DNA of 64,000 bases from Sedimentisphaerales bacterium (GCA_049509475.1 JBEKZW010000005.1:1-64000); one strand, 5' to 3'. Shown: positions 6,421-38,733, counted from the first letter of the stretch. The notes: a model not told the origin generated them from the sequence alone. Numbers and translations: made by a program.

Positions 6421-7233
6421 CTATTTCAGAAGTGAGGCGGGGTTAAGATTTTCGGATTCGATGTCCTTGAAGTATTTCACGGTGCCGTATTTCAATTCTA
6501 CGGCGGCATCTTCGTCGCAGACGATGATTGTTTTGGGATGCAACTGAAGGACGCTGACCGTCCACAAATGATTTACGCCCTGGTCGATTGCGTGATGCAG
6601 AGCGCGTGCCTTGCTGTGGCCTGAGGCGATAATCAGGACTTCTCTTGCATCCATCACGGTAGCGACGCCGACGGTAAGTGCGGTTTTGGGGACTTTGTTT
6701 GCGTCATCATCAAAGAAGCGTGAGTTGGCGATGATGGTGTCCTGGGTGAGGGTTTTAACTCGCGTTCTGCTTGCCAGCGACGAGCCGGGTTCGTTGAAGG
6801 CGATGTGTCCGTCGGGGCCTACGCCTCCGACGAAAAGCTCGATGCCGCCCAGTTGTTTCATTTTTTTCTCATAGCGTTCGCATTCGGCTTCGAGATTTTC
6901 GGCGTTGCCGTCGAGGATGTTGATGTTTTTGGCGGGGATGTCGATATGGCTGAAAAAATTGTTCTGCATATAGTAATGGTAGCTTGCGTGGTGGTCTTCG
7001 GGCAGGCCGACGTACTCATCCATATTAAAAGTGACAACGTTTTTGAACGTTACCTTCTTTGACGAGTTGAGCTTAATCAGGTCTTTATACATACCAAGCG
7101 GCGAAGAGCCGGTGGGCAGGCCGAGAAGGAAAGGTTTTGTTTTAGTCGGCCCAAAATCATTTATTTTTTTCGCGATGTAATGTGCCGCCCATTTTGAGGC
7201 GAGCTTGTAATCCGGTTGAATTATCACTCGCAT
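6421..7233 (-). CDS. nagB: Glucosamine-6-phosphate deaminase
   Basis: 270 aa that matches E. coli NagB along its whole length as recalled from memory ([33 protein letters not shown]). Confidence 0.9.
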
Positions 7234-11792: not shown

Positions 11793-12530
11793 TTACCAGC
11801 CCCAATCCGGAGGCGGGACGTTGTGTCTTTCACGGTGAGGCATATTCCATTCCTGTTGCCCCATATTGTCCGTGCCTGGTCCCGGATTCCAGTTTTGCTG
11901 GAAACGATGCCCCCAGCCGCGCATCGGCCCGGGGCCACCTTGCTGAGGCGCCCAGTTATTCATGCCCATATAGCCCTGCTGACAGGGCATCTGTTCGCAT
12001 CCGCCTGCTGTTGGTCCAATACCGCCGCGATGGAATCCGCAGCAGCCGTTCATTGCTTCAAACTGCTGCCAGCGAGGGCCAGCCATTGGGTATCCCCAAT
12101 TACCAAACTGGCCTGGCATTGCCCAGCCCTGATTCCAGCCTGGGCCTGCCATTTGCGGGCCTTGACCCCAACCGGGACCTGCCATCTGTTGGCTCCAACC
12201 CCAGCCGAATCCCATCTGCCTCATCATTCGGCGATGTGCCCACCTGTGCCACCTGTTGAGTTTTACGAATTCCCGCATTTTTTCTCTGCGTTCCTGCATC
12301 TTGTTGATGATTTGACCCATTTTTTCTCTATCGTTGGCCTTATAGGCCTCGACCAGCTCATCGAGGAGCCGCTCGTGCCGGCCAAATCCCTGTGCGAATT
12401 GTTCGCCGACTTTTGCCTTTGAGGAGGCTTTTTCAGCGGATGCCTTTTCTTTCGCTTTTTCCGCGGCGAATACCGCTATAGTTACCAGTAAAACGGCCGC
12501 GATTATCCCTGTAACGATTTTTCTTGTCAT
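11793..12530 (-). CDS. Secreted low-complexity protein rich in Gly/Trp/Gln/Met/Pro
   Basis: Signal/anchor helix, a charged helical segment, then repeated MAGPGW / GWG / QQ units. No known domain. Confidence 0.55.
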   Translation of the reverse strand: MTRKIVTGIIAAVLLVTIAVFAAEKAKEKASAEKASSKAKVGEQFAQGFGRHERLLDELVEAYKANDREKMGQIINKMQERREKMREFVKLNRWHRWAHRRMMRQMGFGWGWSQQMAGPGWGQGPQMAGPGWNQGWAMPGQFGNWGYPMAGPRWQQFEAMNGCCGFHRGGIGPTAGGCEQMPCQQGYMGMNNWAPQQGGPGPMRGWGHRFQQNWNPGPGTDNMGQQEWNMPHRERHNVPPPDWGW

Positions 12531-12551
12531 ATTTCACCCCACTTAAAATTT

Positions 12552-12740
12552 TTGTTATTACCCAGTTCACGAATACAGACGTTTGACGAGTTAGTTTTAT
12601 TGCGATTTGATTTCGCTGCTATGGGCAGCAAATGGATGCAGGCCGACTCTAATCTTTACTGCGGCGGCTCAGACCTCACCGGTGACGGCTGGGTTGATTT
12701 GGAAGACCTCGCGGCTTTCGTCAACAATTGGCTGCAATAA
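12552..12740 (+). pseudogene. Orphan dockerin-like C-terminal fragment (likely gene remnant or mini-ORF)
   Basis: Encodes ...CGGSDLTGDGWVDLEDLAAFVNNWLQ, the calcium-binding-loop-like motif seen at C-termini of PVC-type secreted proteins. No upstream catalytic domain is present. Confidence 0.3.
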
Positions 12741-12857
12741 CCCAGCGTACCCAAATTCTTAATGTCCGAAAACACTTGCGAGTAGTCATCGTTCGAATTA
12801 AAATACACCTTAGCCGAATTAGGATACACCTTTCCTTAAAACTAAAACGAGGAACCA

Positions 12858-23386: not shown

Positions 23387-24031
23387 TTATTTCTTGCTGT
23401 TCGGGTCCGCTGGTTTGTTTGCGTCTTTATCCTTTTCGCAGCCTTTAACCTTCTCTGCGCCTTCGGTCTTTTCGGAAACTGCGCACATCTTGCTTTTGTT
23501 CGGCTCTGCCGGCTTATTTGCGTCAGCGGGCTTGTTTGCATCGGCTAAGGCGCCGAAATCGCTCGCTCTGATGATGGTGGCTTTGTTCGGCTCGGCGGGC
23601 TTATTCATATCGGCGGGTTCGTTCGGGTCTTTCTTGTGGTGTTTGCCTTTTTTGCCCTTTTCAGCCGGCTTATTTGCGTCTGCGTATGTGCCGAAATCGC
23701 TCGCGCTGATGATGGTGGCCTTGTTCGGCTCGGCGGGCTTATTCGTATCGGCGGGTTCGTTCGGGTCTTTCTTGTGATGTTTGCCTTTTTTGCCTTCGGA
23801 GGCGGCGAGCTTGCTTTTGTTCGGCTCCGCCGGCTTATTTGCGTCAGCGGGCTTGTTTGCATCAGCTAAGGCGCCGAAATCACTTGCGCTGATGAGGGCG
23901 GCCTTGTTCGGCTCAGCCGGTTTGTTCGCATCGCCGGGTTTATTGGCGTCAACTGTTGCCGCGAGGCAGTTAGTCGCAACGAATGCGACTGCAACGATTG
24001 CCAGCACTGTTAGTAGTGTTCTTGTATTCAT
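23387..24031 (-). CDS. Secreted repetitive protein with ANKPAEPNK / ISASDFGALADANKPA repeats
   Basis: Signal peptide followed by about 5 degenerate 40-aa repeats rich in Lys/Pro/Ala/Asn and KKGKHHKKDPNEPAD blocks. Confidence 0.65.
   Translation of the reverse strand: MNTRTLLTVLAIVAVAFVATNCLAATVDANKPGDANKPAEPNKAALISASDFGALADANKPADANKPAEPNKSKLAASEGKKGKHHKKDPNEPADTNKPAEPNKATIISASDFGTYADANKPAEKGKKGKHHKKDPNEPADMNKPAEPNKATIIRASDFGALADANKPADANKPAEPNKSKMCAVSEKTEGAEKVKGCEKDKDANKPADPNSKK
23400..23990. repeat. Coding tandem repeats (about 120 bp units) within the repeat-protein gene
   Basis: Near-identical DNA blocks, e.g. ttgttcggctcggcgggcttattc.tatcggcgggttcgttcgggtctttcttgtg.tgtttgcc, recur. Confidence 0.7.
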
Positions 24032-24372
24032 TCCCTTGTCATCCTTAAAAATCTTGAGTAAAGTTCAGCCTGAATCGGCCAAGACACGTCCGAAAATCAT
24101 ATACCTTTTTCAGGAGGTAGCAATAAAAATCTGATAATTTCAAGCATTTTTTTTTAATAGCCGGCGTCAGGGCGGGCAAACCCTCGTTTTTAAGCTGAAA
24201 ACGGGGTTTCGTGGATTTTCTGGGGGGCAGAAACGAAAACCCGGTAATCATAAAATCATCAAAAAATAATCCGCATTGACTGCGGGATGGCGAGGTGCAT
24301 ATAATTTGCGAATCGAGGAAGGTTGCAAAGGAACTTAAAGACAAGGGTTTTTTTAAGTGAAGGAGAGCCGTT

Positions 24373-26388
24373 ATGAACGTTCAATTCTTACAGGATAGTA
24401 TTGTTGCGGTATCCGGGGCAGGGGTTGTGGTGGTTTACTTTTTGATTTTGCTGTTGCTGGTAATTATTTTGCCGTCGTTTCGGGTGATAGGGCCGACGCA
24501 GGTCGGGCTTGTAATGAAGAGGTTTTCGTTTAAGAAGCTCCAGGAGGATAACCCGATTGCGTTCAATGGCGAGGCGGGTTATCAGGCGGATTTGCTTATG
24601 CCGGGCTGGAGGTGGAAGTTCTGGGTTTTATACAGCGTGCGGAAATTTCCGTGGGTGCAGATACCGGCGGGGCAGATTGGTGTGGTGCTTGCGCAGGTTG
24701 GGCAGCCCCTGCCGATTGGGGCGAAATCGGCGGTTTTCAAAAAGGAGTTCGCTAATTTCAGCAACGTTCGCTCGTTCATAGAAAATGGTGGGCAAAAAGG
24801 TGTTCAAAGGCCGGTGCTATCGCCCGGAACGCTTGTGCCGATGCACCCTGTAGCTTTTATGGTGATTACGAAATTCCAAACATACGGGGTTCCGATATCG
24901 CCAGATTTGGAAGGGCTGGCTAAAAGGTCGGGCAATCTTACCGCGGCATCATTTGGTCTTGCTGCTGAGCAATTGGACGTTGTGCGGATTGAGCCGCAGT
25001 CGCGGGGCGATAAGGGGCTGATTGATATGGTCGGGATAGTAACGACATACGAAGGTCAGCCCCTGCCAGGCGGCAGCATCGCCGGCAGGTTGGGCGGGTT
25101 CTCGGATATTGAAGAGCTTGAGCAGAAAGGCGCGGACAATTCGCAGCTTATCGAGGTGGTGCTGGGGAGCAAAAACGAGCTGCACAACAACTATCAGGAT
25201 TTCCAGTTGTTCCTGGATAACGGCGGCAAAATCGGTTTGCAGCACGACCCGCTGCTTTACGGTGCTTACAACCTTAACCCGTTCCTCGTTTCGGTGGAGC
25301 TTGTGCCGATGCTGGTTGTCGAGCAGGGCGAGGTCGCGGTGATAAAGTCATACGTGGGCCTTGTCAGCGAGGATACATCGGGTGCGGAGTTCAAGTTCGG
25401 GACGCTTGTTAAGCCGGGGCACAGGGGAATTTGGGAAGAGCCGATTAGAACGGGTAAATACCCGATTAACCCGCATTGCTATCGGGCGGAAATCGTCCCG
25501 ACGTGCATACTGACGTTAAACTGGGCGGAGGCCGTCTCGGAGGCGCACAAACTCGACCAGCATTTGAAAACGATTGTCGCGAAAAGCCGGGAAGGTTTCA
25601 TTTTCTCAATCGATTTACAGGTGCAGATACACGTGGCGGACACACAGGCGCCGAAGGTTATTTCGATTGTCGGCACGATGAGCAACTTAGTCAGCGAGGT
25701 TCTTCAGGCGGCTGTTGGCAACCATTTCAGAGACAAGATTCAGAGTATGCCCGCGATAAGATTTATCGAGACGCGACAACAGGTCCAGGAAGAGGCGTAT
25801 CAGCATATCGAGCTGAAACTGCGTGATTACAAGATTGAGACGAAGGGCGTGTATATACAGGACGTTATTTTGCCCGAGGCGCTTGTGCAGGTTTTGACCG
25901 ACAGGGAAATCGCAAACCAGGAAAAGCAGACGTACAAGATGCAGCAGGAGGCGCAGGAGCAGCGAATCCTTACGGAAAAATCCAAAGGCACGGCGGATAT
26001 GCAGGCGGACCTCGCCAAATCGCAGGTTGGAATCGACATCAAGACCAATAATGCCAACGCCAGACAGGCCGAAGGTCGAGGCGAGGCGGCGTATATCGAG
26101 CAGACGGGTAAGGCACAGGGCGCGCAGGTCGAGGCGATTGGTATGGCGCGGGCCAAGGCCTACGAGGCACAGGTAAGGGCACTTGGTCAATCGCAGACGG
26201 CGCTGGTTAACGTGGCGACGGTGCTTTCGGAAGGCAAGGCGAAATTTGTGCCCGATGTTCTTGTCGCGGGCGGCGGCGGAAGCGTGGAAGGATTGGCCGC
26301 GACGCTGATTAAGCATTTTGAGAAAGGTTCCGGTCAGCAGACGGTCGTGCCGGTTCAGCCGGTTAAGACAGATGTGAAAAGGATGTAG
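24373..26388 (+). CDS. Flotillin/SPFH (band 7) domain membrane protein
   Basis: 671 aa. N-terminal TM helix, an SPFH region, and a long coiled-coil C-terminus (QEAQEQRILTEKSKG...AKAYEAQVRALG). Confidence 0.8.
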   Translation: MNVQFLQDSIVAVSGAGVVVVYFLILLLLVIILPSFRVIGPTQVGLVMKRFSFKKLQEDNPIAFNGEAGYQADLLMPGWRWKFWVLYSVRKFPWVQIPAGQIGVVLAQVGQPLPIGAKSAVFKKEFANFSNVRSFIENGGQKGVQRPVLSPGTLVPMHPVAFMVITKFQTYGVPISPDLEGLAKRSGNLTAASFGLAAEQLDVVRIEPQSRGDKGLIDMVGIVTTYEGQPLPGGSIAGRLGGFSDIEELEQKGADNSQLIEVVLGSKNELHNNYQDFQLFLDNGGKIGLQHDPLLYGAYNLNPFLVSVELVPMLVVEQGEVAVIKSYVGLVSEDTSGAEFKFGTLVKPGHRGIWEEPIRTGKYPINPHCYRAEIVPTCILTLNWAEAVSEAHKLDQHLKTIVAKSREGFIFSIDLQVQIHVADTQAPKVISIVGTMSNLVSEVLQAAVGNHFRDKIQSMPAIRFIETRQQVQEEAYQHIELKLRDYKIETKGVYIQDVILPEALVQVLTDREIANQEKQTYKMQQEAQEQRILTEKSKGTADMQADLAKSQVGIDIKTNNANARQAEGRGEAAYIEQTGKAQGAQVEAIGMARAKAYEAQVRALGQSQTALVNVATVLSEGKAKFVPDVLVAGGGGSVEGLAATLIKHFEKGSGQQTVVPVQPVKTDVKRM

Positions 26389-26494
26389 TAAAAGCAAATT
26401 GAATAACCAAAGTGACTGAATGAGGTTTTGTAATCTCGTCGGCCCCATTTTTTTGTTAGAGGCAAAAGTGGTCAGGCGGTTTTTGGACTCGGCT

Positions 26495-26630
26495 GGGGCG
26501 AAAAAGAGACCTGCGCCAATCAGTAAAGCGGAGACGGGGCAATAGAACGTATCAGCGGTTGATTTTACTCAGTAACTCTTTACTGGCCTGGACGCGGAGC
26601 TTGGCGTTCTCGTAGCGTCTTTTTTCATCC
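26495..26630. repeat. Dispersed 3'-end repeat, copy 1 (downstream of the radical SAM gene)
   Basis: About 130 bp shared with 28518-28630 and 30490-30575 (aacgtatcagcggctgattttactcagcaaatctttyctggcctggacgcggagtttggcgttctcgtagcgtcttttttcatc). Confidence 0.75.
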
Positions 26631-28166
26631 GTTGTCAACGGCTGTGCCGCATTTGTTCATTGAGCTGTCGGCGATTTCTTTCATTTGAGGGTAAATATTT
26701 TTTAACATCTTACGGAAATGGAATCCATATATAGACAGGCGAACAGCCATCACCAGACGGCGCGGGCTCCTGATTGCCCAGAACAGCAGCATCCAATAAT
26801 ACATCTTGCCCTTATCTATTATGCCGATTTTCCAGATTGACCTTAGAAACGCCCTGATGTCGCTGTATCGCAGTTTTAGTTTTGCCTTATTACTGAAATT
26901 GTAATTCTTAAGAAACGTTTTGATGCGTTTGCAATAGTATTTCTGCGAGTAAATGGTATTCAGCACTTTGAGATACCCGTGCATAAGTTCGTGGATATCC
27001 ATCCTCGGAATAAAATTCATTGTGCAGTCCATGTTGTCTCCGGATGCCGGCATTGTTAATCTGTTTTCACTCATCAGCTTCTTATGGAGTTTTGTTCCTG
27101 GAGGGGCGTTGAGCAGTCCGACCATCGCGGTGACCACGCCACTGTCCTGAATCAGGCTTATCAATTTATCAAACACACTTGGCTTATCATTGTCAAAACC
27201 GAGAATAAAGCCGGCCTGCACCTGTATGCCAAACCGCTGGATTTTTTTAACCGCCGCGACAATGTCACGTCCGGTGTTTTGCATTTTGTTGCATTCAGCC
27301 AGACTCGATTCATTCGGGGATTCGATGCCGATAAATACACTGCTGAAACCGGCGCCGGCCATCATTGTCATAAGCTCCTCGTCGTCCACCAGGTCGATAG
27401 AGGTCTGTGTATTGAAGGAGAACGGGCGTTTTCTTTTGTTCATCCAGTTTGTGATTGCCGGCAGCAGTTCGTTTTTAAGCTGCTGGCGTTTTCCTATAAA
27501 ATTATCGTCCACAAAGAAAACGTCGCCTCGCCACTTATGAACATAAAGGGCTTCAAGCTCATCGATTATCTGGCTGGTTGTCTTTGTTCTCACCTTATGG
27601 CCAAGCAGGGCCGTGATATCGCAAAAATCACAATTAAACGGACATCCGCGGGAAAACTGAATGCACATCACGGCATATTTTTTCATGTTAATTAAATCCC
27701 ACTGCGGGACCGGCGTATTTTTCAGGTCAGGTTTTTCGTGAGTAGTATAAAAAGGTTCGGGGCATCCTTTTTCGAGGTCACTTAAAAAAGCAGGCAGCGT
27801 GATTTCCGCTTCTTTTAATACGAGGTGGTCAATATTCAAATATCCTCCGGGAAACACGGTAAACAGCGGACCTCCGGCGACGATTCTGGCGTTCAGTTTT
27901 TTACAGCGTTCGATAATCTGGTCAACGGATTTTTTCTGAATCACCATTCCTGTTATGAATACATAGTCTGCCCATGTGATATCCCGGTCGCGCAGAGCGG
28001 TTACGTTCATATCAATTAGTTTTTTCTCAAAAGATTCCGGCAGCATTGATGCAACAGTAAGCAGCCCGAGGGGCGGAAGAAGCGCCTTTTTTGAAACGAA
28101 TTTCAGGGCGCTTTTCAAACTCCAGAAAGTATTTGGGACTTCGGGATTTACAAGCAGGATTTTCAT
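26625..28166 (-). CDS. B12-binding domain radical SAM protein (class B, DUF4070-type C-terminus)
   Basis: N-terminal B12-binding-like region, CxxxCxxC cluster (GCPFNCDFCD), and a C-terminal DUF4070-like tail. Confidence 0.85.
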   Translation of the reverse strand: MKILLVNPEVPNTFWSLKSALKFVSKKALLPPLGLLTVASMLPESFEKKLIDMNVTALRDRDITWADYVFITGMVIQKKSVDQIIERCKKLNARIVAGGPLFTVFPGGYLNIDHLVLKEAEITLPAFLSDLEKGCPEPFYTTHEKPDLKNTPVPQWDLINMKKYAVMCIQFSRGCPFNCDFCDITALLGHKVRTKTTSQIIDELEALYVHKWRGDVFFVDDNFIGKRQQLKNELLPAITNWMNKRKRPFSFNTQTSIDLVDDEELMTMMAGAGFSSVFIGIESPNESSLAECNKMQNTGRDIVAAVKKIQRFGIQVQAGFILGFDNDKPSVFDKLISLIQDSGVVTAMVGLLNAPPGTKLHKKLMSENRLTMPASGDNMDCTMNFIPRMDIHELMHGYLKVLNTIYSQKYYCKRIKTFLKNYNFSNKAKLKLRYSDIRAFLRSIWKIGIIDKGKMYYWMLLFWAIRSPRRLVMAVRLSIYGFHFRKMLKNIYPQMKEIADSSMNKCGTAVDNG

Positions 28167-28435
28167 TTTATTTTCCTAAGCTGGACGCCGGCGGATTGGC
28201 TTGTGATTCGGGTTTTGAATCAGCATTCTTAATCAACAGAAGAGAATTGGTTTTTGCTATGTTTAATAAAATAACTAATACGCCTTTTGTCTGTGGCCCT
28301 TAATGGTTTTTAAGCAGCATTCGGGATGAGCGGATGGCTTACCTAAAGATGATTATCGGTTTGGCAATGAACAATGCAAGAGCAAATTGCCTAATTCAGA
28401 CATCTCAAAAGCTTATAGTTCAATCGCCGAGGGCT

Positions 28436-28485
28436 AAAAAGGGCGTTAATCAGCGTCTAAAGCCCTTTTGGTTTTAGGAATTTTG
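28436..28485. terminator. Hairpin terminator-like element between the pectinesterase gene and the radical SAM gene
   Basis: AAAAGGGC ... GCCCTTTTGGTTTT; works as stem plus U-tract in either orientation. Confidence 0.45.
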
Positions 28486-28517
28486 AATAATTTTTTATTA
28501 TTTTGGTGCGACGGGAG

Positions 28518-28630
28518 CGGGCGAAAAAGAAATCAGCGCCCATTAAACGTATCAGCGGCTGATTTTACTCAACAAATCTTTCCTGGTTTGGATACGCAGT
28601 TTGGCGTTCTCGTAACGTCGTTTTTCATCC
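28518..28630. repeat. Dispersed 3'-end repeat, copy 2 (immediately after the pectinesterase stop codon)
   Basis: On the minus strand it continues in frame after the TAG stop, encoding DEKRRYENAKLRIQTRKDLLSKISR-stop. Confidence 0.75.
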
Positions 28631-30435
28631 TACTTCACTGTCAATGAAGCCGGCTGGCTCGTTACGCGGCCCAATCCATTCATCACGGTGACGGTATAGG
28701 TCGCCGCATCCCTGGCGCGAACATTTTCTATTTTTAACATCGCATCCGTTGCGCCGCTGATAGCGTTACCGTTCTTGAACCATTGACAGGTCGCTGTCGG
28801 AATAGCTTCGGCCTTGACACTGAAGGTTGCTGTTTGCCCAGCCGTTGTAATTACTGCCGCCGGCTGCGACAATATTAGCGGAGCCATCGAAGGAGACCAT
28901 CCGCCAAGCACATAAGAAGGATTGCTGTAGTTGGCGATTATCTCGGCGTCTTTGTCTTTGGTCAGTTGTCTGGAGGCGGGATGCCGCCGGCTGACATCAA
29001 CCGGTTTGCCGTCGCTGATGTTGGAACTATTGTATTCCCAATAATGAATATTCGATGTGTCGGGGCCTACCGGACCCCACCCCGCGGAGCTGATGCCCGC
29101 AAGGGCGCAATTGAGCAATACTGCTTCGCAGTATGGGTAATCCTTGCCTTTGTTCGTGGGCGCACGGGCGATTTCAGTCTCGCGTGCCCCTTCAGTTTGA
29201 AACCTGCAATTGAGAAAGACATTACCGTGGTTAGCGGATGTGTTGCGTATCCACATATAGGCGCCGCCATGTGAAATGAGCTGGCAACGGTTGAGGAACG
29301 CCGGCCCGCGGCCGAGGATTATATCTCCGTCGCCTGTAATCCGGCAATCGGTCAGGTAAACCGAGCCGTTCACCTGTAAGGCATCTCCTGAGCCTTCAAT
29401 ATTAACATTGCTGACGATATTTTGCCCGCCCGCCAGAAGCAGCCCTTCGGCCTGACCTTTCGCTGTGGTTTTGACCGTGAAGTTGACGAGGTGAATCCCT
29501 TTTGAATTATCTCCCATGAACGCAGCGCGACGGGAAGGAAATGTACCCGGCATCTCGTTGGTGGCTACGTTCGACGGATGCGGATTAAAGACTTCATTAT
29601 TGGCGTAACACACAATTGTCTTGTCCCGGTCTTCGCCGAGGAATGTGATGTTCGTCTTGTTGCGGAAATAAACGATTTCCTCATATGTGCCGTTTTTGAT
29701 GAATATAGTTACGCGATTGGGATTGTTATCGGGGAGAAAATCGACCGCGCCCTGCACGGTGCTGAAATCGCCAGAGCCGTCGCCAGAGACCACGAGCCGC
29801 TGGGGATTCCCTGGAAGCGGATTTTTTTTGGTTTTGAAAGTCCATCCGGTTTTGCCTGTGATTCCGGAGAAGCTGCCGTCGCTGAGGCTCAGTACTCCGG
29901 GGTCGATCTGCACGTAATATGTCTTGTTATACTCCAGAAGATTATTGTGAGGGTATATTGTCGCCACGGTGTCATGGATGATGACAGGGTAAAAGTGAAA
30001 CGCATCGGTGAAGCCTCCGATGATCGTAAGCTGATAGTTATCCGGCGTGGCAAGCGCAGTGCCGGATGGAGTCCCCGGTTTAGTGTTGGCATTGGTGAAA
30101 CGGCCTGAGACGTATTCGTAAGGAGTCGTTGTGTAAGACACCTGGGTCCTGTCGCTGGTTGTCGGGCCTGCTGGGATGTTCATGTCCAGGACGTCAACCA
30201 GACGGTCATCTGCTGCGTCATAAATACGAATCTGTCCCGAATTGCCTAATGTCGGCTTGCCGGGGAAAATGAGCACCAGATGTGTGTCCGGATTTACTTC
30301 CTTAGCTTTGTCCGCGGGCCAACACGAAATAGTTTGGCGGAGTTCTTCTTTTTGTGCAAAAAGTAAATTGCATAAAGTAAGAAGAGCGGCGACCTTAATG
30401 GCGATATACGTGTTTCGAGTCATGGCTGTCTCCAT
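28630..30435 (-). CDS. Pectinesterase (CE8) with signal peptide and C-terminal Ig-like domain
   Basis: Pectinesterase signature FIKNGTYEE plus the beta-helix catalytic region (GDGDIILG). C-terminal I-set-like Ig domain. Confidence 0.85.
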   Translation of the reverse strand: METAMTRNTYIAIKVAALLTLCNLLFAQKEELRQTISCWPADKAKEVNPDTHLVLIFPGKPTLGNSGQIRIYDAADDRLVDVLDMNIPAGPTTSDRTQVSYTTTPYEYVSGRFTNANTKPGTPSGTALATPDNYQLTIIGGFTDAFHFYPVIIHDTVATIYPHNNLLEYNKTYYVQIDPGVLSLSDGSFSGITGKTGWTFKTKKNPLPGNPQRLVVSGDGSGDFSTVQGAVDFLPDNNPNRVTIFIKNGTYEEIVYFRNKTNITFLGEDRDKTIVCYANNEVFNPHPSNVATNEMPGTFPSRRAAFMGDNSKGIHLVNFTVKTTAKGQAEGLLLAGGQNIVSNVNIEGSGDALQVNGSVYLTDCRITGDGDIILGRGPAFLNRCQLISHGGAYMWIRNTSANHGNVFLNCRFQTEGARETEIARAPTNKGKDYPYCEAVLLNCALAGISSAGWGPVGPDTSNIHYWEYNSSNISDGKPVDVSRRHPASRQLTKDKDAEIIANYSNPSYVLGGWSPSMAPLILSQPAAVITTAGQTATFSVKAEAIPTATCQWFKNGNAISGATDAMLKIENVRARDAATYTVTVMNGLGRVTSQPASLTVK

Positions 30436-30489
30436 TTATCCTGAATTTTCCATATTAAACTATTCCTATCAGAATAGCCGAGGCAAGTT

Positions 30490-30575
30490 GAACATATCAG
30501 CGGCTGATTTTGCTCAGCAAATCTTTTCTGGCCTGGACACGGAGTTTGGCGTTTTCGTAGCGTCTTTTTTCATCA
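30490..30575. repeat. Dispersed 3'-end repeat, copy 3 (forms the C-terminal coding end of the thioesterase gene)
   Basis: Encodes the genuine C-terminal tail PETPDEKRRYENAKLRVQARKDLLSKISR of the YciA-like thioesterase. Confidence 0.75.
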
Positions 30576-31000
30576 GGTGTTTCCGGCAATATCGGCGGTA
30601 CAGGACAGGGGTGTTTATCTTTATCAAGTGCGACAAAAGTCAGATGAGCGGTCGTAGCGATAACCTGTTTGGCATCGTAAGGGTCTTCGCGAATGACGCG
30701 AACGCCGACTTCCATTGAAGTATGGCCTACATAATTAACAGAGGCCTTCAGCACAACGTGGTCGCCGACGCGAACCGGCTCTCTGAACGATAGCGAATCG
30801 ATGCTTGCCGTTACGACCTCTTTGCCGCAATGCCTCTGGGCGGCCATTGAGGCGACCATGTCAATCCAGGCCACAATCGCCCCGCCCAAAGCGGTCCCGT
30901 AAGGGTTCGCCTGATTAGGCATCAGCAGATACCTGCTCTCAACGGCGCTGTCTGATGGTTTTTTGCCTGCCATATTTTCTGCCATTTCTAAAAACTGCAA
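30497..31000 (-). CDS. Acyl-CoA thioester hydrolase, YciA/BFIT-like hotdog family
   Basis: 167 aa. The hotdog core (YLLMPNQANPYGTALGGAIVAWIDMVA) and a basic EEKRRFEE-like C-terminal tail are typical of this family. Confidence 0.8.
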   Translation of the reverse strand: MQFLEMAENMAGKKPSDSAVESRYLLMPNQANPYGTALGGAIVAWIDMVASMAAQRHCGKEVVTASIDSLSFREPVRVGDHVVLKASVNYVGHTSMEVGVRVIREDPYDAKQVIATTAHLTFVALDKDKHPCPVPPILPETPDEKRRYENAKLRVQARKDLLSKISR

Positions 31001-31009
31001 AGTTTCTTA

Positions 31010-31290
31010 GCCATAGAGTATTTTAGCCACAGATTCCACGGATTGACACAGATTTATTTTAGACGCTGATTGCGCTGGTTACGCTGTTTTTTCAGACACG
31101 GATTAACACTGCATTTGCTCGGTTTGGCGTTCTGCGGCTAAGGGTATTCTCGATGCAAGCATCTGCGATACCCTTTCGCCTTGTCCGCGAAGGCCTTTGG
31201 CCTTCATTTTTGAGCCGAGCACACGGAAGCGAAGTGACGGGCCTGCTTCAGAAATAACACGGATTTAGACGGTTGAACAAGCCCTTCGAC
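31010..31290. repeat. Cluster of short degenerate dispersed repeats (TAGCCATAGAGTATTTTAGCCACAGA; CACGGATTAACACTG units; GTTGAACAAGC...GGGAACTGCTTA)
   Basis: Units recur at 31806-31880 and 32881-32927, flanking the small RF-1-domain gene. Confidence 0.6.
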
Positions 31291-31352
31291 GGTTCGACGA
31301 CGCTCACCGTAGACATGCTCAGGGTGGGTATTGAATACGCAGCGGGAACTGC

Positions 31353-31700
31353 TTACGAGGAGGTTCTGCGTCTATTCCTGTCTTTCTGCTTTCGAATCTT
31401 TTCTATCCTTTTTGCTTCCGGGCTTTCTTGCCCAAATAGTTTATTCTCAAGCAGCTCACACATCCTTTTTCTGGCATAATAACGATTAAGTCCCTGGCTG
31501 CGGCTCTTTTGAATTTTTACTGATAATCCGCTGGGGATATGTTTCAGATGAACACAGGAGGAGCTCTTATTGACCTTCTGGCCTCCTGAACCAGCACTTT
31601 TGACAAATTTTTCTTCTATATCTTTTTCGAACAAATTGCATTTTTGCATACGTTGTTCGAGTTCTTCTTTTTTTTGTTCTGTAATTCCAAAGTTAATCAT
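31353..31700 (-). CDS. Peptidyl-tRNA hydrolase / RF-1 domain protein with GGQ motif (ArfB-like)
   Basis: 115 aa. SGGQKVNKSSSCVHLKHIPSGL matches the class I release factor GGQ domain, and the basic C-terminal tail matches ArfB-type rescue factors. Confidence 0.7.
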   Translation of the reverse strand: MINFGITEQKKEELEQRMQKCNLFEKDIEEKFVKSAGSGGQKVNKSSSCVHLKHIPSGLSVKIQKSRSQGLNRYYARKRMCELLENKLFGQESPEAKRIEKIRKQKDRNRRRTSS

Positions 31701-31805
31701 AGGTTCTCAGCGTTTCCCATAGCCCCCGCGTCTCGTTTTGCGAGGCCCGGTTCGGACCGAGTGCAAAACGGCGGGGGTTCTAACCATCACCACGCCAAGG
31801 CCGAG

Positions 31806-31880
31806 CGAAAATATTCAGACACGGATTAATACTATTTTACACTGTTGAACAAGCAATGGGAACTGCTTATAATGGCAAAA
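31806..31880. repeat. Second copy of the CACGGATTAATACT...GTTGAACAAGC...GGGAACTGCTTATA repeat
   Basis: Direct repeat of 31256-31350 on the other side of the RF-1-domain gene. Confidence 0.55.
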
Positions 31881-31939
31881 CAGGCGGTGTTTGGCGGTTT
31901 ATGCAGACTGCGTAATCATTAATAGGGATTCAATAGAAC

Positions 31940-32401
31940 ATGATAATGGCGTCTAACCTACAAATTTATCTTTCAATAGCTAAAGACTCTTTGGCAAAGT
32001 CGGATAGAATAAGTGCAGCTCAGACGAGACCTAAACCTAACGGCGAGAAAGGTTCAATTATAACCTATGATTTTAAACACAAGTCCTTCAAGCACAGTCT
32101 TGTCGCCATTGTATTCGCTGGTATTTATCTCGAAGCCTTCCTATACATCAAAGGTGTCAAACTTCTGGGTAAAGCTGCCTACGATAAAATAGATTTTAAA
32201 ACCTATGAAGAGAAGCTTAAGGTGCTGAAGATAACCGACCCTCATCTACTTGACACATGTAAACGTTTCCGCATAGCTCGTAAAGAGCTAGTGCACGACA
32301 AGCCATTTCAGCAGAGTGAGGTAAGGTTTGCACAAATTGAAGCACGCAAGGCGATAGATTTGATTGATCGCATAACTCATCTTCTAACAGACAACCCCTA
32401 A
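31940..32401 (+). CDS. Hypothetical protein (low-GC island gene)
   Basis: 153 aa ORF in a markedly AT-rich segment. One hydrophobic segment. No known domain. Confidence 0.45.
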   Translation: MIMASNLQIYLSIAKDSLAKSDRISAAQTRPKPNGEKGSIITYDFKHKSFKHSLVAIVFAGIYLEAFLYIKGVKLLGKAAYDKIDFKTYEEKLKVLKITDPHLLDTCKRFRIARKELVHDKPFQQSEVRFAQIEARKAIDLIDRITHLLTDNP

Positions 32402-32834
32402 CCAAGCGGTGCGGGAATCGTGGACACCATACTTATTTCTTCTGATATCCTCAATTTAAACTACCTGCTCTACGCTGATCCTATATCTGCTGAATTTCGA
32501 GATGACATCGGGCGATTAAAGAATCCCTTCATATGTTCATTCTGAAAAATTCACAAGAAAATTAGCCGAAAGACAAAAAGTCACAAAATTTCCTTCTTGA
32601 AGCAAACTCCTGAAAATCCTCGTTATTGGGCTGAAAAGGGGGTTTTTAGCAGTCTGCTTGTTTTGTAAATAGTTAATAATAATATATTTTCGTTTATTTA
32701 CGAATAAACACTTGACATTAGTTAAGATGGATATAAAATACGACGCCGTTGTTTGGTTAATATATAACAACAAGCGAGCAGAAGGTGAAAGGCCCATTCG
32801 ACAAAGCTCAGGGCGGGCAGCCGAAGGGGACGGA

Positions 32835-32927
32835 GTGTAGACAGCGGACAGCGTGTAGCGGGTAGCGGACAGTTTTGAGTTTAGCCATAGAGATTTTTAG
32901 CTACAGAAGTCACAGAGGACGCAGAGA
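32835..32927. repeat. Dispersed repeat copy (GACAGCGGACAG...AGCGGGTAGCGGACAGTTTTGAGTTTAG + TAGCCATAGAGATTTTTAGCTACAGA)
   Basis: Matches 22615-22670 (inside tsaB) and 31015-31050. Confidence 0.6.
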
Positions 32928-32977
32928 AATAATAAGAAGGAAAAAGCAAAAAGTGGAAAATAAGGAAGGGGAATACT

Positions 32978-33412
32978 ATGGCGAGGAGCAGGACGTTTCA
33001 GAGGATTGATGGGGGCGGAAGAGTGGAAGCAGAAACTGCGGGGAGAATCGACCTTCTGCGGAGCAGGGCGGGGCTTTTGAGGGGCAAGGACAGCGCCCTG
33101 ATGCAGATGTACCTGAACGGCTCGGGGACATTGGGCCAGATGGCGCGGCTGGCGGGCGTAAATGAGGCGAATGTTGCCAGAAGGATTCACAAATTAGTTC
33201 GCCGGCTTCTGGACGGGCAATACATCACCTGCCTGCGCAGCCGCGACAAATTCAGCGATGAGCAAATCGAAATGGCGAGGGACTATTTTGTCGACGGGCT
33301 GCCTATGAAGGAAATAGCCGACAGGCACGAAACGACGTATTACGAGGTGCGAAAAACGATGCGGAAAATTCAGCGGCTGACAACTGTAACACGGACTCAC
33401 ACGGATCATTAA
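32978..33412 (+). CDS. Small DNA-binding protein with two sigma-70 region-4 / HTH-like segments (putative island regulator)
   Basis: 144 aa. HTH-like segments LGQMARLAGVNEANVARRIHKL and LPMKEIADRHETTYYEVRKTMRKI. Confidence 0.45.
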   Translation: MARSRTFQRIDGGGRVEAETAGRIDLLRSRAGLLRGKDSALMQMYLNGSGTLGQMARLAGVNEANVARRIHKLVRRLLDGQYITCLRSRDKFSDEQIEMARDYFVDGLPMKEIADRHETTYYEVRKTMRKIQRLTTVTRTHTDH

Positions 33413-33532
33413 AGATTGCCAATTTTTGATTGTCGATTGCCGATTTAATTTCGGATTTCGGATTGTAGATTGCAGATTTTAACCACAGGTTTTACAGATT
33501 GCGCGGATAGTTTTTGGTTTTGATGAGGAAAT

Positions 33533-37248: not shown

Positions 37249-38733
37249 ATGACTAACGGTATCATTCTGCCGGCAAATGCGCAGGCCCAAAGTGTTTCCC
37301 ATTTGTATGAGTCGCTGCGGCGGGCAAGGCCGACGACAAAAGACGACATGAAAAACTATATCAAGGTCTTTTTGGGAATCGACGTGCCGGATAAGCGAAT
37401 CTGCCCTGAGCACAACAGTCCCCTCGATTATCTCTGGCACAGTTTTAATTGTGATTTTGCAAATCCGAAACTTGCCAATGCTGATTGCATTGTCTGGGCG
37501 AATCGGGGCGGGGGCAAAACCGACCTTGCGGCTGTGGCGACGCTACTGGACTGCGTCTTCAAGCCGAATTGCCAGGTTCGGATATTAGCCGGCTCAGAGG
37601 AACAGGCGGGCAGAATGTATCAATACCTCACCGCCTTTTTGCGTAAAGGTTACGAGCAGTTGCTTTCGGAGCCAATCAGGAAGACGGGGTGTCGATTTGC
37701 TAATGGTTCGGCTGTTGATGTTCTCACGCAGTCGCAGGCGAGCGTTCGAGGCCAGCACATTCAGAAACTCCGCTGCGATGAGGTTGAGCTTTTTGATAAC
37801 GATGTATTTAATGCCGCGAAATTCACCACTCAAAGTAGTGATGACATAATCGCCGGTATGGAGACAATCAGCACAATGCACAAACCCTACGGCCTTATGC
37901 AAAAGCTCGTTTCCTCAGCGGCCAAAACAAACACTCCCGTTTTCAAATGGTGCGTCTGGGAGACAATTGAGAAATGCACAGACCGGAATTGTTCACAGTG
38001 TTTGCTGTGGGGCGATTGCGCGGGCAGGGCGAAACAGGCAGCAGGGTATTTGAAAATTGACGATTGCATTACGCAGATGCGGCGCAGCAGCAGGGCGGGC
38101 TGGGAAGCCGAGATGCTGTGCCTGAAACCTAATCTCGAAAACGTTGTCTTTGACCAGTTCGACCCGGCTATTCACGTCAGGCCCGTCGAATATGACGCGA
38201 ATTTGCCTTTGTATCGTTCGCTGGATTTTGGGTTTGCCAATCCCTTTGTCTGCCTGTGGATTCAGATCGATAGCGAAGGCGTAGTGCGGGTGATTGATGA
38301 ATACGTACGCTCTCGCGCGACAATCGATGCTCACGCGGCTGAGTTGAAGAGCAGAATCTCTGGAGGTGAGTCGCGAGTCATAGCGACATTTTGCGACCCT
38401 GCCGGTGCGGGAGCAAATGATGTTACCGGCACAAGTGCGGTTCGTGAATTGCGTTCGCTGGGCATAAACGTACGGTATCGCAGAAGCGGCATCGCGGAAG
38501 GTATCGAGTCAATCCGCCGGGCGATACGTGATGGCGCAGGCAAAAGCCGATTTGTTGTCTCACCCAAATGCGCCCGCCTTATCGAGGCCCTGACCTGCTA
38601 TCACTATCCTGATACGCCAACAGGCGACGAATTACCTCTGAAAGACGGCGTTTACGACCACCCTATCGATGCCCTGCGTTATTTCTTCGTAAATTACGAA
38701 CACAATACGCAAACAAGGCATAGGATTTATTGA
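37249..38733 (+). CDS. Phage terminase large subunit-like protein
   Basis: Walker A-like ANRGGGKTD, ATPase coupling DEVELFD, and a C-terminal RNase-H-like nuclease domain (SLDFGFANPFVCLW, FCDPAGAG, DHPIDALRYF). Confidence 0.8.
   Translation: MTNGIILPANAQAQSVSHLYESLRRARPTTKDDMKNYIKVFLGIDVPDKRICPEHNSPLDYLWHSFNCDFANPKLANADCIVWANRGGGKTDLAAVATLLDCVFKPNCQVRILAGSEEQAGRMYQYLTAFLRKGYEQLLSEPIRKTGCRFANGSAVDVLTQSQASVRGQHIQKLRCDEVELFDNDVFNAAKFTTQSSDDIIAGMETISTMHKPYGLMQKLVSSAAKTNTPVFKWCVWETIEKCTDRNCSQCLLWGDCAGRAKQAAGYLKIDDCITQMRRSSRAGWEAEMLCLKPNLENVVFDQFDPAIHVRPVEYDANLPLYRSLDFGFANPFVCLWIQIDSEGVVRVIDEYVRSRATIDAHAAELKSRISGGESRVIATFCDPAGAGANDVTGTSAVRELRSLGINVRYRRSGIAEGIESIRRAIRDGAGKSRFVVSPKCARLIEALTCYHYPDTPTGDELPLKDGVYDHPIDALRYFFVNYEHNTQTRHRIY

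Follow-up and report, generated by a model that had tools for sequence, protein, structure and literature searches.

Repeated thioesterase gene ends behind two neighboring genes: probable relics of serial gene insertion in a Sedimentisphaerales bacterium

Three copies of a repeat at the ends of three genes

The window analyzed here is a stretch of 64,000 nt from a Sedimentisphaerales (Planctomycetota) bacterium, and all window coordinates are counted from its first letter. Near its middle, three minus-strand genes follow one another: an acyl-CoA thioesterase (TE), a pectinesterase (PME), and a B12-binding radical SAM gene (rSAM) (Table 1). The 3' end of each is occupied by a copy of one repeat, named c3, c2, and c1, respectively. 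A repeat search of the window returned three direct copies of 98 nt (26545-26642, 28545-28642, and 30490-30587), with pairwise identities of 79 to 86% and spacings of 2000 and 1945 nt. The profile of their 78-nt core matched exactly three sites (E = 2e−25 to 6e−25) and nothing else below E = 1, i.e., no fourth copy in the 64 kb, so the threefold occurrence is far beyond chance. An earlier interpretation of the same DNA, hereafter the sequence-only reading, had described such a threefold repeat within 4 kb at the 3' ends of minus-strand genes, and the three direct copies (E around 1e−25) agree with it. The 84-nt string that it quoted is a blend of the copies and has no match in the window at up to 3 mismatches, although the repeat itself is present.

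The three copies stand in different frames relative to their genes. The c3 core corresponds to the final 26 codons of the 167-aa TE (DEKRRYENAKLRVQARKDLLSKISR and stop), and the c2 core begins immediately after the TAG of the PME, in frame (DEKRRYENAKLRIQTRKDLLSKISR and stop). For c1, the core overlaps the TGA of the rSAM (GGA TGA / G GAT GAA), and its frame is +1 (DEKRRYENAKLRVQASKELLSKINR and stop). These are the frames previously proposed for the native tail of the TE, the in-frame copy after TAG, and the copy across TGA, and all were verified. Homology outlasts the TE stop codon by 32 nt in c3, 43 nt in c2, and 81 nt in c1, matching the native downstream flank of the TE, and the total lengths of the repeats differ accordingly (110, 121, and 159 nt). 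An independent ENA contig of 2470 nt (L163; L numbers denote related loci) is 100% identical to window positions 29022-26553. Since it comes from a separate assembly and covers both the PME and the rSAM junctions, the arrangement is not an assembly artifact.

Table 1. Features of the TE locus, listed along the minus strand
Feature	Position	Strand	Basis or remarks
RF-1-domain gene (ArfB/PrfH-like, GGQ), 115 aa	31353-31700	-	between two direct 25-nt motif copies
Acyl-CoA thioesterase (hotdog fold, Acot/YciA type), 167 aa, intact	30497-31000	-	Pfam 4HBT, E = 3.9e−21
Copy c3	30465-30574	-	core 30497-30574, predicted functional TE end; then 32 nt (30465-30496) resembling native flank d1; then PME upstream region
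Pectinesterase, 601 aa, C-terminal Ig domain; putative cargo nearest the TE	28630-30435	-	Pfam Pectinesterase and Ig_3
Copy c2	28509-28629	-	probable displaced TE end; core 28552-28629; then 43 nt of TE flank (d2, up to ...CCCGTCG)
Conserved non-coding stretch X, about 300 nt	28189-28508	-	alignment; L084 sequence
B12-binding radical SAM/DUF4070 gene, coding sequence 26625-28166, 513 aa	26623-28188 (unit)	-	Pfam; blastn versus L081
Copy c1	26471-26629	-	original TE end, displaced; core 26552-26629; then 81 nt of native flank (d1, d2, ...GAGTCCAAAAACCGCCTGAC)
SPFH/Band_7 block, coding sequence 24373-26388	24292-26470	+	Pfam Band_7; absent from L011

The core as the native end of the thioesterase

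The matches of the TE in the PDB were Acot12, Acot7, and acyl-CoA hydrolases, and in this comparison its tail DEKRRYENAKLRVQAR aligned with DDFRRYRGAIARKRIR of the Acot12 C-terminus. Given that alignment, the core is predicted to be the native coding sequence for a C-terminal helix typical of the family. TE orthologs (63 to 96% identical) were found in 80 related Planctomycetota loci, mostly metagenome-assembled genomes of Sedimentisphaerales/Phycisphaerae. The core was detectable in DNA at 69 related loci/species, each time in a single copy that is the TE's own end, and a second copy was absent from the 80 related TE loci (nhmmer and self-blast of each locus). The sequence-only reading had suggested a mobile 3' element. 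A native TE helix matching the Acot12 tail, found once per locus in 69 species, varying in the TE frame, and without a match among viral contigs, does not behave like one.

The TE is conserved far better than either of its flanks. Together with the genes upstream, it is syntenic and 75 to 95% identical in L001, L002, and L084. Some 360 nt behind the TE, L011 continues with a PAEPNK-repeat protein and with TsaD-like and ABC genes, the same ones as in the window from 24031 to 17900.

Displaced ends and their junctions

In L002 and L011, the sequence that starts right behind the TE stop codon runs colinear with the 81 nt following the c1 core (d1, d2, ...GAGTCCAAAAACCGCCTGAC; L002 10405-10543 versus window 26636-26498, 91% over 139 nt), and the intergenic sequence of L011 picks up again at window position 24291, beyond the SPFH gene. 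This colinearity with the native flanks of two TE genes identifies c1, together with its own flank, as the ancestral TE end, now lying about 4 kb away from the gene. Everything from c3 through the rSAM stop codon sits between the TE body and that end. An origin of c1 by tandem duplication was rejected, since the c1 flank continues as native L011-type sequence and the c2 flank turns into X.

The rSAM gene of L081, which stands in another neighborhood without TE, is 92% identical to that of the window. The blastn alignment between the two loci (91%) extends from 28188 to 26623, that is, it reaches 22 nt ahead of the ATG and 2 nt past the stop codon, and nothing aligned beyond; no core was present behind the rSAM stop codon in L081. 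More distant rSAM orthologs carry other 3' flanks. The rSAM C-terminus, D(N/H)G before the stop codon, is native to the family (DNG in the window). In L081 the 3' end of the gene reads GACAACGGATGAAA/tccggc, the native flank reads GACAACGGATGAAAtccggc, and the TE at the junction reads GACAGCGGATGAAA/AAAGACG. A junction microhomology therefore exists, and the boundary between rSAM and c1 falls within 6 to 9 shared bases, (C)GGATGA(AA).

The PME also ends as its relatives do, with a C-terminus (LTVK before the stop codon) common to distant orthologs. Some of these end in TAG GATAGG (L085) or TAG GACGGA (L086), and the native ends TAGGATAGG and TAGGACGGA share about 4 nt (GGAT) with the GCGGATG of the TE at the junction between PME and c2. 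The arrangement is not conserved in relatives: adjacency of TE and PME is confined to the window and the PME-containing metagenome loci L001/L082/L083, L084, and L087, and a second core copy occurs only in this PME clade, in the window, in L084, and as a remnant in L001/L082/L083. In L084 (PME 89% identical), the TAG is followed by GATG, a 75-nt hairpin insert, core positions 15 to 78, complete d1 and d2, and then X. The frame past its PME meets a second stop immediately (TAG GAT GCG TAG). The L084 ortholog of c2 is identical to that of the window at 57 of 63 positions (90%). Given the shared order TE-PME-c2-d1-d2-X, c2 evidently predates the split of the window and L084 lineages. In L001/L082/L083 (PME 92% identical), only GATGAAAAACGAC (13 nt of c2) remains after the TAG, followed by about 95 unrelated nucleotides and X.

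Two further interpretations of c2 were discarded. Selection on c2 had been considered from its 90% identity to L084, and was rejected because the third codon positions of the PME are 86% identical between the same genomes. The 13 nt behind the PME of L001 had been considered as the core site of a recombinase, and this was rejected as well: the L084 c2 is fuller and distant PME orthologs have only the GGAT. Across lineages (window versus L001 and L084), third codon positions were 86 to 89% identical in the PME versus 74 to 77% in the TE, suggesting a more recent sharing of the PME segment between lineages than of the genes on either side. The 3' half of the PME (28630-30435) reaches 94 to 99% nucleotide identity between the same lineages.

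Related long-hairpin inserts (GCGAAG..CCCCG.GTCGT ... CGGGGA) were found inside TE-end copies of L001 (10493-10582, the same in L082 and L083) and L084 (11804-11878). The first rewrites the TE C-terminus to ...SKISSERPL before the stop codon, and the second replaces positions 5 to 14 of the copy behind the PME. They do not form an abundant family of miniature inverted-repeat transposable elements, an idea rejected on finding only these L001 and L084 copies in the 2 Mb of loci covered.

Substitutions among the copies

Differences between the copies follow the codon positions of the TE. Counted for positions 1/2/3, they were 0/1/7 between c1 and c3, 4/0/6 between c2 and c3, and 4/1/8 between c1 and c2; in the two remaining frames, nearly all inter-copy differences alter amino acids. 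Compared with 74 native TE cores, the reference set for core variants, c1 differs from the consensus at 8 positions and c2 and c3 at 7 each, and all of these states recur in native TE genes except one in c1 and one in c2. No private substitution was found in c3. The private change of c1 is AGG to AGT (R to S, in 0 of 74 native cores), the near-private change of c2 is GTC to ATC (V to I, 1 of 74), and the L084 ortholog of c2 carries a private GAT to TAT (D to Y, 0 of 74). Each of the three is non-synonymous and falls on an otherwise invariant residue.

The copies thus derive, as judged from these variants, from real TE alleles. Since the shared states are native and the private ones are non-synonymous at invariant residues, the simplest reading would be that each copy diverged as the working TE end of some lineage and took a few unconstrained hits once displaced. 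The states that distinguish the copies are nearly all found in native alleles of other lineages, with the qualification that the core has just 78 nt and that synonymous sites are prone to parallel change. This pattern argues against duplication in situ followed by drift, and a former coding life would explain the codon-like substitutions without translation of c1 or c2. A candidate 19-aa open reading frame (ORF) in the +1 frame (MKKDATRTP...), whose ATG lies at the start of the repeat and overlaps the rSAM stop codon as ATGA, was rejected, as the differences in its frame were 0 to 2 synonymous versus 7 to 10 non-synonymous.

A variable region downstream of the thioesterase

Gene content downstream of the TE differs in nearly every related genome. 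L002 has a PNPOx-like gene together with one for a protein of 828 aa, L010 has a membrane protein of 601 aa, and L003, L004, L007, and L084 carry a Maf block. There are many breakpoints, which lie after a hairpin, within d1, or after d2, and the inserts start within the 3' end of the TE, the gene that is homologous between lineages, or directly behind it. The proposal of a recombination hotspot made in the sequence-only reading fits this picture well, because the region behind the TE varies among relatives with differing breakpoints and the copies mark insertion junctions.

The stretch X (...TATAGGCATTTGCGATGTC.AAATAGGCAA...) recurs after the PME in L001 (about 12540-12850) and L084 (about 12020-12330) and after the rSAM in L081 (about 6700-6980). 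It usually precedes genes for a mechanosensitive (MS)-channel-like protein, DUF5670, and DUF3185, it had no Rfam match, and it may represent a promoter, leader, or novel RNA. In the window, X abuts the upstream region of the rSAM, and the DUF5670 and DUF3185 genes that follow it in L084 are missing. This direct joining implies an internal deletion. The P0003 contig has the order MS-channel, DUF5670, DUF3185, rSAM, and then a PNPOx-DUF1444-Band_7 block, so that the modules around the TE recur in new orders among the relatives (P0003 contig, L084, and window).

The SPFH block splits the native intergenic region between the TE and the repeat protein without any duplication: the L011 sequence ...CCGCCTGAC/GCCATCCCGCA... 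is interrupted in the window. The block ends 82 nt past its own stop codon. Beyond it lies the 214-aa secreted PAEPNK/DANKP repeat protein (23387-24031, minus strand), which has internal DNA repeats of 134 nt, 91% and 72% identical, and whose repeat number and length vary among L002, L010, and L011.

On the other side of the TE, 1.5 kb of upstream sequence (about 31050-32550) is shared with none of L001, L002, and L084; the window from 17.9 to 43 kb is otherwise syntenic with L002. This upstream part holds the RF-1-domain gene, bordered by 25-nt copies of a motif A (TAAGCAGTTCCC..TGC.T.TTCAA) at 31845-31869 and 31331-31355. Relatives have motif A once, 100 to 250 nt upstream of the TE (L004 9902, L005 4802, L006 9770, L007 9745, L011 9823, and L087 898). 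The TAA of the RF-1-domain gene forms the first three bases of the downstream copy, and RF-1 genes elsewhere end in CCTCATAA/ttt or CCTCATAA/taa. Motif A holds an inverted repeat, TAAGCA N8 TGCTTG, and the segment 31087-31844 is missing from relatives.

Several other elements were seen nearby. The sequence (T)TAATCCGTGTCTGAA and its variants occur four times upstream of the TE (31091-31110, 31814-31833, 31255-31282, and about 31045) and could be an operator or promoter element. A 36-nt repeat (TTAGCCATAGAG.TTTTAGC.ACAGA...) lies just upstream of the TE start (31007-31042) and twice near a sigma-like regulator (32881-32916 and 33463-33498); it is probably a shared promoter element. Further away, a plus-strand ORF of 494 aa (37249-38733) with a Terminase_6C match and no NCBIfam match adjoins ParB_N and ABC genes. 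It does not belong to a recent prophage, since it is syntenic in L002.

Serial insertion and competing explanations

We consider it probable, at about 0.6, that c1 and c2 are relic TE ends, stranded as foreign genes were inserted one after another at a hotspot, through one-sided homology and microhomology with DNA of related lineages. The best explanation of the three copies would then be that c3 is the one working 3' end of the TE and that c2 and c1 are dead, displaced 3' ends. DNA of related lineages would have entered twice, each time carrying a TE 3' end and another gene, the PME in one event and a block ending in the rSAM in the other. On the TE side, the incoming DNA would have paired by ordinary homology with the resident TE. 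On the far side, its end at the stop codon of the cargo would have been joined illegitimately to codon 142 of the resident TE through a few shared bases, GGAT for the PME and (C)GGATGA(AA) for the rSAM. The incoming DNA would thereby supply a new TE end, and the last 26 codons of the resident gene, with their flank, would be stranded behind the cargo. This mechanism, known as homology-facilitated illegitimate recombination (HFIR), the order of the two events, and the route of DNA entry are what we infer from comparing the loci. Nothing indicates a function for c1 or c2.

Several points weigh against this explanation. Both junctions fall at the same TE position (GGATG, codon 142), a coincidence expected a few percent of the time if the events were independent. 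All three duplication-flanked insertions (PME, rSAM, and the RF-1-domain gene with motif A) end 0 to 2 nt from the stop codon of the cargo, and such stop-codon-precise ends are not predicted by HFIR. The shared bases in L081 might be 7 nt left over from an earlier junction between rSAM and the repeat; at least GGATGA is native to the rSAM end, since the family ends in G and stop. No donor genome with the TE directly followed by X and the rSAM was found, the core count in the source organism covers this 64-kb window alone, and we know of no natural transformation or other DNA uptake route in these uncultured bacteria.

Some of these points would be natural for a defined site. Integrative elements could have targeted the TE 3' end, each bringing a substitute end, accreting in tandem, and leaving attL/attR-type scars after loss of the integrase, as in cis-mobilizable elements (CIMEs). 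Direct repeats in the same orientation bound each cargo unit (c3, c2, and c1 around PME and rSAM), the 5' boundary is identical in c1 and c2, and junctions that coincide in position and fall exactly at stop codons are what such a site would give. The functional copy nearest the gene body and the original end furthest from it also reproduce the layout of tandem accretion (PMC5704250). We nevertheless regard this origin as unlikely. No recombinase match in Pfam or NCBIfam was found in the PME, rSAM, SPFH, and RF-1-domain genes or a 153-aa ORF, none appeared among the ORFs downstream of the TE in L002, L003, L004, L007, and L010 (an ORF listing, not all searched with Pfam), and the rest of the 17.9-43 kb region is syntenic with L002. 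Two degenerate patterns of the core had 0 matches in a viral contig collection. The single core in 69 related species speaks against repeated occupation of the site by different elements, and relatives have many breakpoints downstream of the TE instead of one. The repeats are unequal in length, the rSAM junction coincides with identity that pre-existed in the native rSAM end, and the unit between c2 and c1 corresponds to an ordinary chromosomal neighborhood (X, DUF5670, DUF3185 ... rSAM ... Band_7) seen elsewhere without TE.

The PME, rSAM, and RF-1 units all end 0 to 2 nt from their own stop codons and are then followed by a copy of the local target, with the rSAM unit trimmed to −22...+2 around its coding sequence. 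This leaves a small chance, lower than that of an integrase-borne origin, for an undescribed process that would move precise ORF-sized units into the hotspot and duplicate 25 to 160 nt of the target, i.e., a cassette system without attC or a recognizable integrase.

A terminator, an mRNA-stabilizing 3' untranslated region (UTR), or a 3'-derived small RNA placed behind several genes, and also coding in the TE, would account for copies directly behind stop codons, for d1 and d2 being conserved downstream of the TE in several lineages, and for the 90% match between the c2 copies of the window and L084. Each copy also has a weak hairpin with T6 on the plus strand, opposite to the genes. We hold this to be very improbable. 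Sense-strand folding was no better than that of shuffled sequences (z = −0.08, −0.16, and −0.02), no Rfam match at E ≤ 1 was found in 24000-33000, and the copies have no terminator-like site on the sense strand. The antisense hairpins reach only −5 to −8 kcal/mol and are simply DEKRRYENA codons. Variation tracks codon positions and not pairing, the identity of c2 to L084 is close to that of third positions in the PME (86%) and fits neutral drift, and of c2 only 13 nt survive in L001/L082/L083, while the L084 copy is interrupted. With c2 truncated or disrupted in sister lineages, the shared terminator or UTR module of the sequence-only reading does not hold, and neither does its readthrough of the PME stop codon, as the in-frame arrangement is lacking in related genomes. 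The plus-strand hairpin and T6 sites (26603-26625, 28602-28626, and 30548-30570) are most likely a by-product of the DEKRRYENA codons; that of c1 comes 215 nt after the convergent SPFH gene.

Programmed recoding, in which readthrough of the PME TAG and a frameshift at the rSAM stop codon would append the basic TE helix to a fraction of the proteins, is hardly credible. In its favor, c2 continues the PME frame past the TAG without another stop, 26 codons are open in c1 as well as in c2, and the rSAM stop codon is followed by an A AAA AAG run. Against it, the extension is not conserved (a second stop in L084 and, after 13 nt, divergence into an unrelated peptide in L001/L082/L083), translation in the rSAM frame ends ahead of the run, the private changes of c1 and c2 alter residues invariant in 74 native genes, open frames of this length are expected by chance at such low divergence, and the TE helix has no obvious role on a secreted PME that ends in an Ig domain.

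Implications

Serial insertion, if it is the correct explanation, makes this locus a clean natural example of a conserved gene that collects foreign genes beside a variable region, each one arriving with a gene end of its own and stranding the old one. As a scar it belongs to a known kind, to which it adds a new case. The copies illustrate that codon-like substitutions in an untranslated repeat can be inherited from a past coding life, and they advise caution, since readthrough or dual coding should not be deduced from sequence alone. The comparison also suggests that insertion by an anchor plus microhomology shapes the genomes of uncultured peat Planctomycetota. The locus would matter more if it were true that the stop-codon-precise junctions reflect a dedicated cassette-moving mechanism.

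Comparison with known systems

Integron cassette arrays (ORF plus attC, e.g., the repeats known as VCRs in Vibrio) resemble the locus in that ORFs stand singly and point the same way, with a repeat of about 120 nt and 80 to 90% identity right behind each. Unlike attC, the TE repeat has no imperfect palindrome (no inverted repeats and a fold z of about 0 in all three copies), and it is native coding sequence of the first gene, with the corresponding substitution pattern by codon position. There is no IntI either: the upstream genes are the TE, the RF-1-domain gene, the 153-aa ORF, and the sigma-like regulator.

Tandem accretion of integrative elements and CIMEs is known at the 3' ends of target genes, e.g., fda or tRNA genes (Pavlovic et al. 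2004; as reviewed in PMC5704250). As in those systems, directly oriented copies of the 3' end separate blocks of cargo, the working end stands by the gene body with older ends outward, and the units have no integrase of their own. The TE locus departs from them in that no integrase or relaxase was found in its neighborhood or in relatives, the repeats vary in length and share no identical crossover core, and the cargo consists of single housekeeping-type genes from ordinary chromosomal contexts, joined where microhomology to their native flanks exists.

HFIR with junctions of 3 to 10 bp has been documented in S. pneumoniae, A. baylyi, and P. stutzeri (de Vries & Wackernagel 2002; Prudhomme et al. 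2002; Meier & Wackernagel 2003), according to the summary in PMC6382021. The present case differs in being deduced from comparative sequence only. Its join lies inside the anchor gene, so that a piece of 110 to 160 nt of the recipient was duplicated and not deleted, and it occurred twice at the same position, with the donor end exactly at the stop codon of the cargo. What the TE locus has in common with HFIR is one side anchored by homology, here a conserved gene 91 to 95% identical between lineages, the other side joined at a microhomology of 3 to 10 bp, here about 4 nt for the PME and 6 to 9 nt for the rSAM, and foreign genes added beside the anchor.

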